64,000 bases of DNA, from the NCBI GenBank assembly GCA_963696825.1, contig CAVOLN010000003.1:45130-109129 (forward strand). The letters run 5' to 3'. The position numbers and the translations under genes were made by a program. Shown one piece after another: positions 22,764 to 44,412 of the stretch. This DNA is from Terriglobia bacterium (GTDB lineage Bacteria > Acidobacteriota > Terriglobia > Terriglobales > Acidobacteriaceae). Below the pieces are notes generated by a model. It had not been told where the DNA came from. It worked only from the letters and a program-made list of their open reading frames with translations, and ran no database searches. Each line of letters starts with the position of its first letter. Positions within the stretch are counted from its first letter, which is position 1.

Positions 22764-22786
22764 ACGTCGTTGGTCGTTGGCCAAAG
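22764..22786. repeat. Heptamer-repeat arm, GTCGTTG dialect (D)
   Basis: acgtcgttggtcgttggccaaag, directly after the rpsL stop. Confidence 0.65.
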
Positions 22787-22836
22787 CCACGAAGAATCGG
22801 TCGCGCAAGGGTTTGAAGGATGAAGTTAGGAACGTT

Positions 22837-22890
22837 GAGCTGAAAGCTGACGGCTGAGAGCTGACAGCTAGAAGCCAGGAGCTAGAAGCT
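22837..22890. repeat. Heptamer-repeat tract, GCTGARR then GCTAGRA dialects (B then C); ends 3 nt before rpsG ATG
   Basis: gagctgaaagctgacggctgagagctgacagctagaagccaggagctagaagct. Confidence 0.8.
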
Positions 22891-22893
22891 TAC

Positions 22894-23364
22894 ATGCCTC
22901 GAAAAGGATATATCGCGAAGCGGAAAGTGGAGGTCGATCCGGTGTACGGGTCGGACCTGGTCACGAAGTTCGTCAACTCCATGATGTGGCAGGGCAAGAA
23001 GAGCACGGCGGAAGGCATCTTTTATGAAGCCTTGACCAAGCTGCAGCAAAAGGGTGGCGATGAGCCCCTGAAGCTGTTCAAGAAGGCGGTGGAGAACGCC
23101 AAGCCGCTGCTCGAAGTGAAGAGCCGCCGCGTGGGCGGCGCCAACTACCAGGTTCCGGTGGAAGTGAATGCCGACCGTCGCACTTCGCTGGCCATCCGCT
23201 GGCTGATCACATACTCCCGCGGACGCGCCGAAAAAGGCATGGTCGACAAGCTGAGCAATGAATTGCTCGATGCCAGCAACAATCGCGGCGCGGCCATCAA
23301 GAAGAAAGAAGATGTGCACCGCATGGCCGAGGCGAACAAGGCCTTCGCGCACTATCGTTGGTAG
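22894..23364 (+). CDS. rpsG: 30S ribosomal protein S7
   Basis: [20 protein letters not shown]...[12 protein letters not shown]. Confidence 0.97.
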
Positions 23365-23370
23365 AAACGC

Positions 23371-23433
23371 AGCTTCCAGCTGCTAGCTCCTGGCTTCTAG
23401 CAAAACGAGCCGGAGGCATTAGCTAGGAGCCAG
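23371..23433. repeat. GCTAGRA-complement arm (C') plus short partner in the fusA leader
   Basis: agcttccagctgctagctcctggcttctagc ... agctaggagccag. Positions 23383-23401 are the exact reverse complement of 22867-22885. Confidence 0.8.
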
Positions 23434-23445
23434 TCGCTAAATCAG

Positions 23446-25645
23446 ATGAGTACCGGTACCAACATCGTCGGCGAACAAGAGTCTCGCAAGGAAGAGAAGA
23501 AAAAAGCTGTGTCCAGAACAGTCCCATTAGAACGGTGCAGAAACATCGGCATCATGGCCCACATCGATGCCGGCAAGACCACTACGACCGAGCGCATCCT
23601 GTTTTATACGGGAAAGACGCATCGCATCGGAGAGGTCCACGAAGGCACTGCCACCATGGACTGGATGGAGCAGGAGCAGGAGCGCGGCATCACCATTACT
23701 TCCGCCGCCACCACCTGCACCTGGCGCGACATTCGCATCAATATTATTGATACCCCCGGCCACGTGGATTTCACCGCCGAAGTGGAGCGGTCGCTGCGCG
23801 TGCTCGACGGCGCTGTGGCCGTGTTCGACGCTGTCCACGGAGTGCAGCCGCAATCGGAAAAAGTCTGGCGTCAAGCCGACAAGTACGGCGTCCCGAGAAT
23901 TTGTTTTATCAACAAGATTGATAAGATGGGCGCCGATTTCGAGCACGCCGTCGATACCCTCCGCAAACGCCTCAATGCCAAGCCCGTCGCGATTCAAATC
24001 CCCATCGGACAGGAAGACAAGTTCAAAGGCGTAGTCGATCTCATCGAGATGAAGTCGATCGTCTGGCAGGACGACACCATCGGCGCCGAGTACATCACCG
24101 GCGAGATTCCCGCCGAACTGCAGAAGAAAGCCGAAGCGTTCCATACCGCGCTGGTCGAAACCGTCGCCGAAAATGACGACGAGATGCTGCACAAGTTCCT
24201 CGAAGGCGAGACCATTACGCCGGCGGAGTTGCGCGCCTCGCTGCGCAAGTCGACCATCGCGCTGAAAGTATTTCCGGTGGTGGTGGGAACTGCCTTCAAG
24301 AATAAAGGTATCCAGCCGCTGCTCGATGCGGTCGTCGATTATCTGCCGTCGCCGCTCGATGCCGGCGAAGTCAAGGGCGTAAATCCGGACAACGGCGAAG
24401 TGATCACGCGCAAGCCGGCCGACAGCGAACCCTTTTCCGCTCTGGCATTCAAGATCATGGCCGACCCGTTCGTCGGCCAGTTGACGTTTATTCGCGTTTA
24501 CTCCGGCCAGCTCAAGTCCGGAGACTCGGTGCTGAACGCCGGCCGCGGACGCAGCGAGCGCATTGGACGCCTGCTCAAGATGCACGCCAACAAGCGCGAA
24601 GATATCAACGAAATTCTGGCGGGCGATATCTGCGCCGCGGTTGGCCTCAAGAACGTTTCGACCGGCGACACCATCTGCGACGAAAAGCATCCCATCGCTC
24701 TCGAGTCCATCACCTTTGCGGTTCCCGTGATCTCGGTCGCGGTCGAGCCCAAGACCAAAGCCGATCAGGAAAAGATGGGCATGGCGCTTTCCAAGCTGGC
24801 CCAGGAAGATCCCACCTTCAAGGTTCACACCGACCCCGACAGCGGACAAACCATCATCAGCGGCATGGGCGAGTTGCATCTCGAAATCATCGTCGACCGC
24901 ATGATGCGCGAGTACAAGGTCGAAGCCAACGTCGGCAAGCCGCAGGTGGCGTATCGCGAAACCATCCGCAAGCATGCCGAAGCCGAAGGCAAGTACATTC
25001 GCCAGACCGGCGGTCGCGGCCAGTACGGACACGCCAAGATCAAGCTGGACCCGCAACCTGCCGGAACGGGCTACGAATTCGTCAACGACATCGTTGGGCG
25101 GTTCGGTGCCCAAGGAATACATCAAGCCCATCGATCAGGGCATTCAGGAAGCGCTCGAAGGCGGAATTCTGGCTGGCTATCCCATGGTTGATGTGAAGGC
25201 CACGCTCTACGACGGCAGCTATCACGATGTCGATTCCAACGAAATGGCATTCAAGATCGCGGGTTCGATGGCGTTCAAGGAAGCCGCCCGCAAGGCCTCT
25301 CCGGTGCTGCTGGAGCCGGTGATGGCGGTGGAAGTGGTTACGCCGGAAGATTATGCCGGCACCATCATGGGCGACCTGAGTTCGCGCCGCGGACGGATCG
25401 AAGGCATGGAGCATCGCGCCGGTTCGCAGGTGATCAAAGCGATTGTGCCGCTGGCTGAGATGTTCGGTTACGCCACGCACATGCGTTCCAGCACCCAGGG
25501 CCGCGCCGAGTACTCGATGCACTTCGCGCGCTATGAAGAAGTGCCGCGCAGCGCGGCGGACGAGATCATCGGGAAGGCACAGGGAAGCCTAAGAGATAAG
25601 CAAAGCCGCGGGCGAGGGCGCCCGCGCCACACAAGACGGAGCTAG
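23446..25645 (+). CDS. fusA: Elongation factor G; one apparent 1-nt insertion (~25096)
   Basis: [20 protein letters not shown] and NKIDK motifs. The frame changes at gtt ggG cgg (...YEFVNDIVG / [14 protein letters not shown]...). Confidence 0.95.
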
Positions 25646-25648
25646 GAA

Positions 25649-42372: not shown

Positions 42373-42437
42373 ATTTTCGTCCGGGACGAAGGGTGAAGCC
42401 AAACCTGTAAACCGGTCATCTAATAAGGAGAAACAAC

Positions 42438-43067
42438 TTGGCACGTTACACCGATCCCGTCTGTCGTCTCTGCCGCCGCGAGGGCATGAAGCTGTTCCTC
42501 AAAGGCACCAAGTGCTTCAGCGATAAATGTCCCATCGAGAAGCGCAACTTTGCTCCTGGCCAGCATGGCAAGGACCGCAAAGCCAAGATCGTCGGCTACG
42601 GTCTGCAGCTGCGCGAAAAGCAGAAAGCCAAGCGCATCTACTTCACCCAGGAAGGCCAGTTCCGCAACTACTTCGAGAAGGCGGCGCGCACCCGGGGCGT
42701 CACCGGCGAAATGCTGCTGCAACAGCTGGAGCGCCGTCTGGACAACGTGGTCTACCGCCTCGGCTTCGGCATGTCCCGCCGCCAGGCGCGCCAGTTGGTG
42801 CGTCACGGCCACATCCAGGTGAATGGACGCAAGGTCAACATTCCTTCGTACCAGGTGAGCGTGGGCGAGGAGATTGCGATCCGCGAAAGCAGCAAGAAGC
42901 TGCCCATCCTGGAGCCGGCGAAGGAATTTGCCAGCCACCAGAATGCGCCCAACTGGCTGGAGATCGATCGCGATAACTACAAAGGCAAGGTTCTGGCCTT
43001 GCCCAAGCGCGAAGACATCAACCTGCCGGTCAACGAGCAGTTGATTGTGGAGTTGTACAGCAAGTAG
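42438..43067 (+). CDS. rpsD: 30S ribosomal protein S4 (zinc-ribbon N-terminus)
   Basis: TTG start. [36 protein letters not shown]. Confidence 0.96.
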
Positions 43068-43151
43068 TCGTCGAGTCGTTCCGGTCTTCAGTCGGTCATC
43101 GAGAACCATGCATTGACTTGGACGACCAGAAGACTGACGACTGACGACTGG
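43066..43151. repeat. Hairpin, GTCGTCR dialect (A/A'), overlaps rpsD stop
   Basis: agtcgtcgagtcgttccggtcttcagtcggtc / gacgaccagaagactgacgactgacgactgg. Confidence 0.75.
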
Positions 43152-43261
43152 TCCAACAATTCGAGCCAGATCAGCCTGTCTCTGACGCTTGACCTGAAAT
43201 GAAACGCGGACCAGTTCAGGGATGTCAGGACTGAGCCAAACGGCCGAAGGAGAACAACGTA

Positions 43262-44296
43262 ATGCTTTGGAAGGGATTTCAAAAACCCAAACGTCTCGCC
43301 GTCGATACTTCAACCCTAACCGACAAGTACGGCATCTTCTGGGCCCAGCCGTTTGAACGCGGCTTCGGCACCACCATCGGCAACGCTCTGCGCCGCGTCA
43401 TGCTTTCTTCGATCGAAGGAGCGGCGGTCACCGCGGTGAAGATCGAAGGCGTGCTGCACGAGTTCCAGTCGATTCCCGGCGTGGTCGAAGACGCGACCGA
43501 CATCATCCTCAACCTGAAGCAGATTCCGTTCAAGTTGAGCGGCGATGCTCCCAAGGCGATCTATCTGCGCGCCGACCAGCCGGGCGTTGTCACCTCCGGC
43601 ATGATCGAAGCCGATGCCGACGTCGAAGTGCTCGACAAGGACGTCTACATCGCGACCGTCAGCGAAGGCGGCAAGCTCGACATGGAAATGCGCCTCAAGC
43701 GCGGCCGCGGCTACGTTTCGGCGGACAAGAACTTCGACGAAGATCTGGGCATCGGTTTCATTCCCATCGACTCCGTGCACTCTCCGGTGCGCAAGTGCAA
43801 CTACACCGTGGAAGCGGCGCGTCTGGGACAGATCACCGACTACGACAAGCTGACTCTCGAAGTGTGGACCAACGGCTCCATCACTCCGGCCGATTCGATC
43901 GGCCTGGCGGCGAAGCTGCTGAAGGACCACATGAACATCTTCATCAACTTCGAAGAGGACATCGAGACTTCCACTTCGACCGACGACCGCAAGCCGGAGA
44001 TCAAGAACGAGAACCTGAACCGGTCGGTCGAGGAGTTGGAGCTTTCGGTGCGCAGCTACAACTGCCTGAAGAATGCCAACATCCAGACCATCGGCGAACT
44101 GGTCCAGAAGACCGAAGCCGAAATGCTGAAGACCAAGAACTTCGGCCGCAAGTCGCTGAACGAGATCAAGGAAATTCTGTCGTCGATGGGCTTGAGCCTG
44201 GGCATGAAGATCGACGAGCACGGCAATGCCGTGCCCGGCCCGACTTCGAACCAGGTGCTGCCGGCATCGGCGTACGGTCCGGACAACGATCTATAG
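43262..44296 (+). CDS. rpoA: DNA-directed RNA polymerase subunit alpha
   Basis: 344 aa, intact. ...[26 protein letters not shown]... and C-terminal [23 protein letters not shown]. Confidence 0.97.
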
Positions 44297-44307
44297 AAAT
44301 CAGGTTT

Positions 44308-44340
44308 CGGGTGGCGCTTGCGCCACCCGGTTTCGCGTTT
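44308..44340 (+). terminator. Intrinsic terminator/attenuator-like hairpin between rpoA and rplQ
   Basis: cgggtggcg-cttg-cgccacccg (perfect 9 bp) followed by gtttcgcgttt. Confidence 0.5.
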
Positions 44341-44375
44341 CCAGTTGCCGAGATCGATTTGCGGCGCTTGAAGCG

Positions 44376-44412
44376 AACTGAAACCTTGAAACTAGAAACC
44401 TTGAAACTTGGA
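44376..44412. repeat. 8-mer repeat arm, GAAACYTW dialect (F)
   Basis: aactgaaaccttgaaactagaaaccttgaaacttgg. GGAGG follows, then the rplQ ATG. Confidence 0.7.

Follow-up and report, generated by a model that had tools for sequence, protein, structure and literature searches.

Are the inverted arms of short tandem repeats that separate the genes of an acidobacterial ribosomal super-operon a device built for that operon, or do they belong to a more widespread class of repeats? The question is raised by a stretch of 64,000 nt from the genome of a Terriglobia bacterium (GenBank assembly GCA_963696825.1, contig CAVOLN010000003.1, positions 45,130 to 109,129 of the forward strand), hereafter the window, in which the str/S10/spc/alpha ribosomal gene cluster occupies positions 22388-44896 on the plus strand. 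An earlier note, made from the sequence alone, had taken the arms for an operon-wide design, in which the terminating ribosome might melt each stem and so expose the next initiation site, or the stems might be processing or stability modules. We find that the arms very likely belong to a dispersed class of heptamer arrays and are not an operon-specific device: they are local copies of a genome- and lineage-wide class of intergenic heptanucleotide repeats, kin to the short tandemly repeated repetitive (STRR) sequences of cyanobacteria and to the heptamers of Xanthomonas and Nostoc. The explanation that we favor overall, and consider probable, combines this class with stems that loop out the spacers of operons.

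The analysis is based on the 64-kb window and on loci of at most 20 kb from its relatives (numbered with the prefix L): 80 loci around rplP, one genome per species, and 20 further loci from close relatives collected through identical RpsL or RpmJ proteins (an exact-protein look-up with RplF gave no match). The nearest genomes are metagenome-assembled genomes (MAGs) of Terriglobia that resemble ‘Candidatus Sulfotelmatobacter’; RplP shares 97% identity with that of L001, and tuf shares up to 95% nucleotide identity with that of L092.

Arrays and hairpins in the ribosomal gene cluster

Between rpsL and rplQ, 22 of the 34 gene junctions contain one or more arrays, each with about 4-5 degenerate units of 7 nt (sometimes 8 nt), and 12 contain no array. 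In the spacers that the earlier note had named, Tandem Repeats Finder reported arrays of period 7 (GTCGTCA, GTCGTTG, AGCTGAC/AGCTGAG, and AGCTAGA) and of period 8 (AATTGAGT, TGAAACCT, and AAATTACA), and the paired arms were recovered by an inverted-repeat scan of the window; the description of the arms as tandem degenerate units was thus confirmed. Spacers were folded with their stop and start codons included, and the folding energies were expressed as z relative to dinucleotide shuffles. Complementary pairs that fold far better than the shuffles are found at only 10-12 of the 34 junctions (z -3.7 to -9.4), so the statement that most spacers consist of inverted pairs is right for the arrays but not for the pairs. 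Weaker folds (z -2.0 to -2.8) were obtained for map-infA, infA-rpmJ, rpsD-rpoA, rplE-rpsN, and rplB-rpsS, and arrays without a local partner (z +0.8 to -1.75) occur in rpsL-rpsG, rpsC-rplP, rplP-rpmC, rplC-rplD, rplN-rplX, and rpsJ-rplC. The array-containing spacers are as follows (SD, Shine-Dalgarno; MFE, minimum free energy).

22766-22890, plus strand: rpsL-rpsG spacer, no hairpin (z 0.0); on the stop side a short GTCGTTG x2 array (22766-22780) after the stop codon; on the start side unpaired purine-type GCTGARR x4.6 and GCTAGAA/GCCAGGA x3 (22838-22890), ending 3 nt from the rpsG ATG
23371-23439, plus strand: rpsG-fusA hairpin, arms of AGCTNCN type (left) and GCTAGGAGCCAG (right); MFE -36.3, z -3.7
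26966-26990, plus strand: tuf-rpsJ spacer, unpaired AGCTAGA x3.6, adjoining other, non-repeat hairpins
27390-27421, plus strand: rpsJ-rplC, stop-proximal CAGCYNT x4.7 overlapping the TAG stop codon; z -1.75
28211-28240, plus strand: rplC-rplD, one GTCGTTG x4 array; right half (CCAAC) decayed
29294-29380, plus strand: rplW-rplB hairpin, GTCGTCA x4.3 (29295-29324) and TGACGAC (29356-29380), the first triplet of the arm being the TAG stop codon; z -5.9
30288-30334, plus strand: rplB-rpsS, purine-type GCTGAGA x6.4 ending 4 nt from the ATG, z -2.8; a stop-proximal GTCGTCG-like array at about 30220-30245 is not complementary to it
31876-31902, plus strand: rpsC-rplP, unpaired GCTAGAA-type array upstream of the rplP ATG; z 0.1
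32336-32363, plus strand: rplP-rpmC, unpaired GAACTGA-type array upstream of the rpmC ATG, near the TAACTGA unit discussed below; z -0.3
33322-33354, plus strand: rplN-rplX, unpaired AATTGR-type array downstream of the stop codon; z +0.8
33742-33830, plus strand: rplX-rplE hairpin, AGCTNCT x4.6 and AGCTAGA x4.6, arms of 32 nt with 88% complementarity; z -6.0
34511-34552, plus strand: rplE-rpsN, GCTGAGA-type array that pairs in part with itself; z -2.3
35336-35459, plus strand: rpsH-rplF hairpin, AGCTACT x4.7 (35341-35373) and GCTAGAA x4.3 (35426-35455); z -6.0
36000-36134, plus strand: rplF-rplR hairpin, GTCGTTG x4 (36000-36027) and CAACGAC x4 (36100-36134), with an SD-like final unit, CCAAGGAC; z -4.8
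36504-36615, plus strand: rplR-rpsE hairpin of 8-nt units, AATTGAGT x4.8 and AATTGCTC x3.5; z -9.4
37360-37429, plus strand: rpmD-rplO hairpin, CAGCTCT type and GAGCTGA x4.7; z -5.3
40899-40980, plus strand: map-infA, weaker repeat hairpin, CAGCTNT and GCTRARA; z -2.0
41239-41270, plus strand: infA-rpmJ, purine-type GCTGARG x4.6 ending 4 nt from the ATG; z -2.2
41794-41855, plus strand: rpsM-rpsK hairpin, almost loopless, CTAGCTTCTAGCTCCTAGCTAGAAGCTAAAGGCTAGGAGCTAG; z -4.7
42299-42377, plus strand: rpsK-rpsD hairpin, CCAGTTTC type and GGAAACTGG type; z -4.0
43065-43150, plus strand: rpsD-rpoA hairpin, degenerate GTCGTCG type and GACTGAC x2.7; z -2.7 for the whole spacer
44303-44408, plus strand: rpoA-rplQ structured spacer, 8-nt TGAAACCT x3.8 arrays; z -4.3

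The anatomy that emerges is an array of about 25-33 nt with 4-5 conserved cores between variable positions, usually in a convergent complementary pair, in which a G/T-rich (pyrimidine-type) array directly adjoins the upstream stop codon and a purine-rich one the next start codon. The earlier note had declared that its finding would fail if the spacers folded no better than shuffled controls or if orthologous spacers in relatives lacked paired arms; neither was the outcome, since ten junctions fold within the range given above and paired arms are kept in relatives, as described below.

Copies outside the ribosomal gene cluster

The same elements recur elsewhere in the window.

8360-8467, strand not assigned: divergent-gene hairpin, GTCGTCA/TGACGAC, between a peptidase M20 gene (minus) and msrA (plus); z -4.2
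18792-18950, plus strand: ribH-nusB hairpin, right arm ending 4 nt from the nusB ATG (18955); z -4.8
19361-19509, strand not assigned: convergent-gene hairpin with the nusB stop codon within its left arm and its right arm ending 2 nt from the stop codon of a minus-strand open reading frame (ORF; 19512-20528); z -4.3
45588-45616, plus strand: unpaired CAGTCGY array, 4 nt downstream of the stop codon of a plus-strand ORF and facing a convergent VanZ gene
48654-48749, plus strand: rimP-nusA hairpin of 8-nt AAATTACA units; z -2.9
53324-53394, plus strand: infB-DUF503 hairpin, arms of 33 nt with 94% complementarity, the stop codon 3 nt upstream of the stem and the ATG directly downstream of it, no SD; MFE -65.1 kcal/mol, z -13.3
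54236-54292, plus strand: rbfA-nrnA, short degenerate GTCGGTC/GACTGAC pair
57003-57076, strand not assigned: GCAATTA/CCAATTG hairpin, arms of 22 nt with 95% complementarity; z -5.8
58199-58322, strand not assigned: CAGCTCT/GCTGAGA hairpin, adjoining minus-strand genes including DUF6677; z -4.0

Of the four outside copies that the earlier note had listed, those at ribH-nusB, infB-DUF503, and rimP-nusA are real, and that at rbfA-nrnA is a degenerate copy. The idea of a design specific to the ribosomal super-operon had to be given up, since the elements also occupy spacers of convergent and of divergent gene pairs and are found beside unrelated genes and in viral contigs (see below).

The reading frame of ribH (18286-18873) passes through the left repeat arm, with a C-terminal ...VVGRQSSVVGKISK..., and the called length of RibH varies from 145 to 221 amino acids among the relatives. 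Together with the nusB stop codon that falls within an arm (nusB end at 19340-19400), this frame indicates that arrays reshape the 3′ ends of genes. The repeats inflate operon spacers and extend ORFs (as in RibH), and in MAGs of Acidobacteriota they may lead gene callers and operon predictors astray.

Size, period, and position of the arrays in relatives

In 1.31 Mb of sequence we counted 425 arrays of period 7, as compared to 5 in block-shuffled sequence; period 6 gave 52 arrays and period 8 gave 35, with no other period above 52. Similarly, Tandem Repeats Finder returned 658 rows of period 7, vs. 91 and 94 for periods 6 and 8. Most common are array lengths of 25-26 nt and of 31-32 nt; no more than about 5% of the arrays are longer than 35 nt, and 81% fall between 24 and 34 nt, although 92% of the 561 arrays contain no G-tracts. 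The density is 3.08 arrays per kb in spacers and 0.0195 per kb in coding sequence, a 158-fold difference; by gene arrangement (as called with a crude gene caller), spacers of co-directional genes have 5.07 arrays per kb, those of convergent genes 2.38, and those of divergent genes 2.07. For 43% of the arrays, a stop codon is no more than 10 nt away from where the array starts, and for about one third, a start codon is no more than 20 nt away from where it ends.

The distances to the stop and start codons that the earlier note had given are correct when read off the sequence, and they recur in the relatives: in 136 hairpin spacers (median length 105 nt), the median distance is 4 nt from the stop codon to the stem and 10 nt from the stem to the start codon (15.5 nt for the sum), and the stop codon lies within the stem in 28 of them. 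Since the stem loops out most of the spacer, the gap between stop and start codons in the folded transcript would be about 16 nt. The stems have a median of 28 bp, with 87% Watson-Crick pairs (85 stems), and loops of 5-100 nt; they are long and not GC-rich. By their predicted length, they reach the roughly 20 bp or more of near-continuous duplex that defines RNase III-type substrates.

We also considered whether the units serve to place stop codons in all three reading frames. Among 326 arrays in the spacers of relatives, 58.6% of the units contain a stop codon (40.8% expected; 65% for start-proximal arrays), and 44% of the arrays cover all three frames. Stop codons are thus enriched, yet this is not general enough to be the purpose of the units.

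Pairing is kept while the units change

An inverted partner is found no more than 220 nt away for 55-66% of the arrays, vs. 4% in a control with the wrong polarity. Across 951 orthologous spacers, the median z is -4.9 for spacers with at least two arrays, -3.5 for those with one, and -1.3 for those with none. Arms of one spacer proved complementary in 77-86% of cases, vs. 42-50% when a stop-proximal and a start-proximal array of one genome were combined across spacers. The rplR-rpsE spacer provides the clearest case for the claim that orthologous spacers keep pairing while their sequence changes: its arms in ten relatives belong to four unit families (CTAG, CTGA, CTAA, and CGAG types), and still 95.7% of the cells are paired; both sides have changed in a compensatory way in 10 of 21 pairs; the observed values were reached in 0 of 500 shuffles; and pairing collapses when the partner column is slid by 1-3 positions. 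Close relatives in which the unit family has been swapped at the same junction, with the arms still complementary, constitute a natural comparative dataset.

Arm polarity and translation signals

The order of the arms is constant, with the G/T-rich or pyrimidine-type arm first and the purine-type arm second. Since the arm order of a perfect palindrome is identical on both strands, this constancy is an intrinsic property of the element. We scanned metagenomes with the purine-type array GCTAGAAGCCAGGAGCTAGAAGC and obtained 120 stretches, of which 87 could be classified; in none of these 87 does the partner lie downstream. At 59 sites the array stands between co-directional plus-strand genes, at a median of 8 nt upstream of the start codon, and the genes that follow are many and unrelated (ychF, atpA, gcvH, gcvP, rplF, and others). 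At another 25 sites it adjoins the stop codon of a gene on the opposite strand, in whose transcript it is of the stop-proximal type. Unpaired arrays show the same composition: purines predominate in 46 of 51 start-proximal ones (A 0.33, T 0.15), and those near stop codons are G/T-rich. SD-like motifs precede 47% of the genes that follow an array, vs. 61% of the other genes in the same genomes and 70% in array-poor genomes. In some families, the last unit is changed into an SD-like CCAAGGAC or CTGAGG.

Comparison with known repeat classes

Records of tandem heptanucleotide repeats go back to 1990 for cyanobacteria and to 2007 for many other genomes. STRR sequences can lengthen an RNA helix, as in P12 of the RNase P RNA. 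Our literature search, within the library open to it, found no report of such repeats in Acidobacteria, and Rfam at its gathering threshold gave no match in the window and, in the relatives, only Acido-Lenti-1, a different spacer element.

The closest published counterparts are the degenerate heptamers GGGAATC of Xanthomonas and GGGGA(C/T)T of Nostoc, which prefer four units and which are transcribed, with their function left unresolved; 70-75 of about 185 arrays (∼40%) form convergent inverted pairs that are capable of forming stem-loops (Rehm et al., 2015; PMC4692102). The function of heptamer repeats is still said not to have been worked out (PMC4692102; 2022 Nostoc preprint, bioRxiv 10.1101/2022.06.06.494920). 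The arrays described here share with them tandem 7-nt units with degenerate positions, a strong non-coding bias, about four units, convergent pairs, enrichment between aligned ORFs and depletion between divergent ones, positions adjoining stop codons and upstream of ORFs, and sequences and lengths that vary widely among close relatives. They differ in having many unit families per genome, 92% of arrays without G-tracts, and an extreme density in ribosomal protein operons, and in belonging to another phylum. All of the class features that we tested (period 7, non-coding bias, about four units, a convergent partner, and placement at stop and start codons) were found, and we conclude that the acidobacterial arrays are new and unusually diverse members of the known class of heptameric repeats.

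G-quadruplex formation has been proposed for the Xanthomonas and Nostoc heptamers, and two families seen here, AGGGATC and CAGGGGT, do resemble GGGAATC and GGGGATT and show a similar preference for four units. However, GGG or CCC occurs within the unit in only 43 of the 561 arrays, and the other 518 show the same length preference; a property confined to so few arrays cannot explain the four-unit rule. This explanation is largely refuted for the present lineage by the G-tract-free arrays, and we regard it as extremely improbable. The four-unit rule and the stop-to-start layout hold in dozens of families without G-tracts, which suggests a general cause.

The TAACTGA direct repeats of marine Beggiatoaceae, cyanobacteria, and Bacteroidetes offer a second comparison: they form forward arrays of 2-6 copies a few nt upstream of start codons, also within ribosomal protein operons and rarely with a ribosome-binding site, are suspected of a translational role, and consist in Beggiatoa of one exact unit, with one indirect repeat among 170 sets (MacGregor, 2015; PMC4679880). 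Here too, forward arrays lie near start codons (median of 8 nt at the 59 metagenomic sites) and SD-like motifs are rarer, and some units are nearly identical to TAACTGA (GAACTGA at rplP-rpmC of the window, and the AACTGAG/AACTGAC families of L028 and L050). Unlike in Beggiatoa, the arrays are mostly paired, degenerate, and diverse, and the exact unit is absent (the window has only the GAACTGA-like array at 32336-32363). The STRR sequences of Calothrix and Anabaena, as far as they are treated in PMC4692102, likewise comprise several heptanucleotide families in non-coding DNA; they are set apart from the present arrays by their description only, being often longer and described without stop-to-start hairpins.

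Repetitive extragenic palindromic (REP) sequences, bacterial interspersed mosaic elements (BIMEs), and REP doublets (REPINs) also are extragenic, high-copy elements whose inverted doublets form long hairpins in operon spacers and at 3′ ends. Their known roles include mRNA stabilization. The REP unit is an imperfect palindrome of 20-40 nt with a conserved GTAG/CGTC head, tied to the REP-associated tyrosine transposase (RAYT; PMC3733652). The arms described here are tandem heptamers without such a head and do not fit this definition. CRISPR was rejected: its repeats of 23-50 nt are separated by unique spacers of similar size, whereas the present units are 7-8 nt long and contiguous, and the second array is inverted. 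Thus the earlier statement that the elements match no named family stands with respect to REP and CRISPR, but they do match the published heptameric intergenic repeats (PMC4692102, PMC4679880).

Single-site parallels to the hairpins were considered in addition to the repeat classes. Intercistronic hairpins cut by RNase III are known from the early mRNA of phage T7 and from rplL-rpoB of E. coli, and re-initiation or bypass bridged by a hairpin is known from the cauliflower mosaic virus shunt and from T4 gene 60. The arrays resemble these cases in their predicted long intercistronic duplex, whose stem has a stop codon at its 5′ base and is followed closely, on the 3′ side, by a landing or start site, but those are single, sequence-specific sites, whereas here we deal with a dispersed repeat class whose hairpins are predicted only.

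Distribution and turnover

The distribution of the arrays among Acidobacteriota is patchy. Many Terriglobia MAGs are rich in them, as are Vicinamibacterales (L034), Pyrinomonadaceae (L053, L060, L065, and L067), and Blastocatellia (L071); the Granulicella-like L020-L023 are free of them. The sample contains 149 different consensus units, with several per genome and flavors that are genome-specific.

Turnover is most evident at the rplW-rplB junction, where 12 genomes (tuf identity 91-95%) have three types of spacer in a mosaic unrelated to tuf similarity: paired GTCGTCA/TGACGAC, non-complementary GTCGTTG and GCTAGAA, and paired CAGCTNT/CTGAGAG. The rplC-rplD position carries an array in 12 of 12 close relatives, with units that are uniformly TTG, TCG, or TCA. 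Concerted evolution of the units in orthologous arrays is suggested by 4 of 6 comparisons, which involve few arrays. In the Pyrinomonadaceae locus L065, four copies within 10 kb have common arms, a common part of the loop, and a common TTGAGGTT-ATG trailer, and the arm TTCATCCTTCATCCTTCCGCCTTCATCCTT is identical in L053 and L065. Comparison of the genomic loci shows a rapid turnover and exchange of arrays at the level of DNA.

Viral contigs also contain the arrays. We found 106 stretches with GCTGANA-type (x4) arrays, up to ten or more per contig and some in hairpins; examples from IMG/VR (among loci L221-L300 and later ones) are IMGVR_UViG_3300005541_000016 and IMGVR_UViG_3300044798_000503, and in the viral contig L258 long CCGCTNT arrays adjoin GCTGAGA arrays. 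The start of an ORF follows only 59 of 108 viral arrays, and the orientation rules look looser.

Possible roles and alternative explanations

In a transcript, a pair of arrays would zip into a stem of 25-35 bp that tolerates shifts of register. Within operons, such a stem may keep termination and re-initiation adjacent despite the inserted sequence, and its purine-rich, often SD-poor 3′ arm could act as the landing site once the terminating ribosome has opened the base of the stem. The long duplexes are also plausible substrates of RNase III or barriers to 3′ exonucleases, a role that would also fit the elements between convergent genes. For paired copies within operons, structure-assisted translational coupling is a plausible role, and because the elements saturate the most highly expressed and tightly coupled operons, they must either leave efficient translation unhindered or benefit it. 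That coupling or processing maintains the arrays, rather than tolerance of a self-propagating repeat, is a tentative and somewhat doubtful proposition.

Several observations weigh against a role of the stems in joining adjacent genes. Coupling is impossible for the convergent and divergent copies, 35-45% of the arrays have no partner, and hairpins have been lost without obvious consequence at rpsG-fusA of L100 (27-nt spacer) and at rplW-rplB of L003 (16-nt spacer). Mirror symmetry unit by unit is absent from the stems, whose Watson-Crick fraction is 0.859 in the best register and 0.849-0.872 at shifts of +/-7 and +/-14, and so is a wobble signature of the sense strand, with 82 G·U and 98 A·C mismatches in 85 stems. 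Since G·U is not favored and shifted registers are equally good, no selection for one particular RNA fold can be seen in them. The fixed arm polarity could equally stem from an element with defined ends. The stems are ‘slippery zippers’, with complementarity between unit families and not between individual base pairs; either one unit family supplies both arms, or there is selection on bulk pairing. The structure-enforced coupling of the earlier note therefore keeps the support of geometry and of fewer SD-like motifs but cannot be the general role, given how common unpaired arrays and non-operon contexts are and given the lack of an RNA-specific signature of selection.

In its strict form, with hairpins purpose-built for the ribosomal super-operon and a terminating ribosome that melts the stem to expose the next start, coupling would account for the short median distances (4 nt from stop to stem, 10 nt from stem to start), for the DUF503 ATG that directly follows a stem of -65 kcal/mol with no SD, for the depletion of SD-like motifs before array-preceded genes, and for the pairing conserved in relatives. 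We nevertheless consider it unlikely, since the elements are genome-wide (in unrelated operons, at convergent and divergent genes, and in viral contigs), since arrays at many junctions are unpaired or non-complementary, since there is neither a G·U bias nor a unique register, and since close relatives have lost hairpins at single junctions. Quite unlikely, too, is a mobile palindrome similar to REPINs or miniature inverted-repeat transposable elements, spread by a transposase (e.g., RAYT) or other copying and tolerated in spacers. The four copies of the whole element within 10 kb of L065, loop and 3′ trailer included, the TTCATCCTTCATCCTTCCGCCTTCATCCTT arms identical in L053 and L065, the fixed polarity (reverse order in 0 of 87), the mosaic presence and absence in close relatives, and the arrays in viral contigs all speak for such an element. 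On the other hand, the loops of the window copies are unrelated, the arms are tandem arrays instead of REP-type palindromes with a GTAG or CGTC head, and shifted registers pair equally well, which is unexpected for a recently copied palindrome; no target-site duplication was noticed in the copies that were read, with no systematic test for it, and no transposase was seen in the annotated parts only (the ribosomal operon and ten flanking ORFs), the whole window not having been scanned.

The arrays might instead be periodic sites for an oligomeric nucleic-acid-binding protein, with which the complementary arm competes. HutP, for example, recognizes NAG-N4 triplets that recur every 7 nt, and TRAP recognizes repeated triplets. 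A reader of this kind would fit the constant number of units (about 4-5 cores, whatever the sequence), the conserved core with variable positions (CAG, TAG, or TGG plus 4 nt), the four units that stand unpaired at rplC-rplD in 12 of 12 close relatives and change flavor together, and the genome-specific unit flavors, and such proteins have been proposed for the heptamers of Beggiatoa and Nostoc. However, HutP and TRAP serve here as analogies, and 149 consensus units, with several unrelated families per genome, make a single reader unlikely; we hold this explanation to be distinctly unlikely. Intrinsic transcription terminators or attenuators within the operon are highly improbable. A T-run of 3-5 nt does stand between several right arms and the ATG, but a terminator scan of 22300-42299, which ruled them out, gave 27 sites (21.4 +/- 5.0 expected), none of them at the repeat hairpins. 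Nor do the long stems that are not GC-rich and the loops of 5-100 nt suit terminators, which have a short GC-rich stem, a loop of 3-8 nt, and a U-tract.

The combination of a dispersed heptamer class with stems that loop out operon spacers could be extended to a general punctuation of operons: paired arrays in several Acidobacteriota classes would act as zippers for a shunt-like termination and re-initiation at SD-less starts. The stem would bring stop and start codons next to each other, so that the terminating ribosome is handed over a stem of about 30 bp, while RNase III, or a protein that recognizes the 7-nt period, might set the balance between stem formation and initiation. Because both arms are periodic, the stem would survive slippage of whole units. 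This extension is improbable; if true, it would provide a common function for the STRR, Xanthomonas, and Beggiatoa heptamers.

Sequence quality and other spacer elements

Apparent frameshifts are numerous in the conserved genes of the window (fusA, the start of rplC, rplD, rpsS/rpsC, rplO, secY, adk, and rplQ). The same genes are intact in relatives, so the window most likely carries indel errors from long-read assembly, for which the repeats themselves are likely hot spots. The frameshifted stretches are:

23446-25645
27476-27515
28264-29003
30338-31902
37435-39749
44408-44896

Some irregular 6-nt or 8-nt ‘units’ of the window may be sequencing errors. An assembly artefact as the source of the arrays was ruled out: they are present in Nanopore MAGs, in Illumina MAGs (MEGAHIT k141 contigs), and in JGI metagenome contigs, from many studies.

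The frameshifts obscure the true fusA-tuf spacer of the window. In L095 (11204-11249), L001 (3680-3725), and L094 (11271-11316), this spacer contains Acido-Lenti-1 (RF01687) on the minus strand, within an insert that comprises three GC-rich hairpins. A similar insert is found elsewhere among the spacers of L008, whereas the fusA-tuf spacer of the window and of L092 is a short allele that lacks Acido-Lenti-1.

A second dispersed element, a conserved hairpin of about 40 nt (GATTCCTCACCGCTGAnGCGGTTCGGAATGACAAG) without an Rfam match, sits between the stop- and start-proximal arrays of the rpsL-rpsG and rplB-rpsS spacers in L091-L100 and L001, and a degenerate copy lies at 30245-30290 of the window. 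The rpsN-rpsH spacer of the window holds a GC-rich hairpin (34800-34835; CTCCCACCCTGGCGC...GCGCCAGAGTGGGG), and its recurrence in the rplR-rpsE spacer of L017 suggests a third dispersed element. Between two minus-strand ORFs of the window (11493-11590), there is also a non-heptamer inverted repeat of 45 nt with 80% complementarity and a loop of 8 nt (z -7.8).

Three conserved motifs were observed in the spacers upstream of rplE, rplF, and rplR of relatives (e.g., L008-L017 and L019-L030): CTCACGAACCGG...CCGAAACCGTGAGAGA before rplE, GGCTGCAGTGGAACG...GGGACTCGCAAGCC before rplF, and CACCGAACG...GCAGGGCGGCTCCGC...TAGGAA before rplR. Judged by their sequences, they look like lineage-specific leader or autoregulatory structures of ribosomal protein genes.

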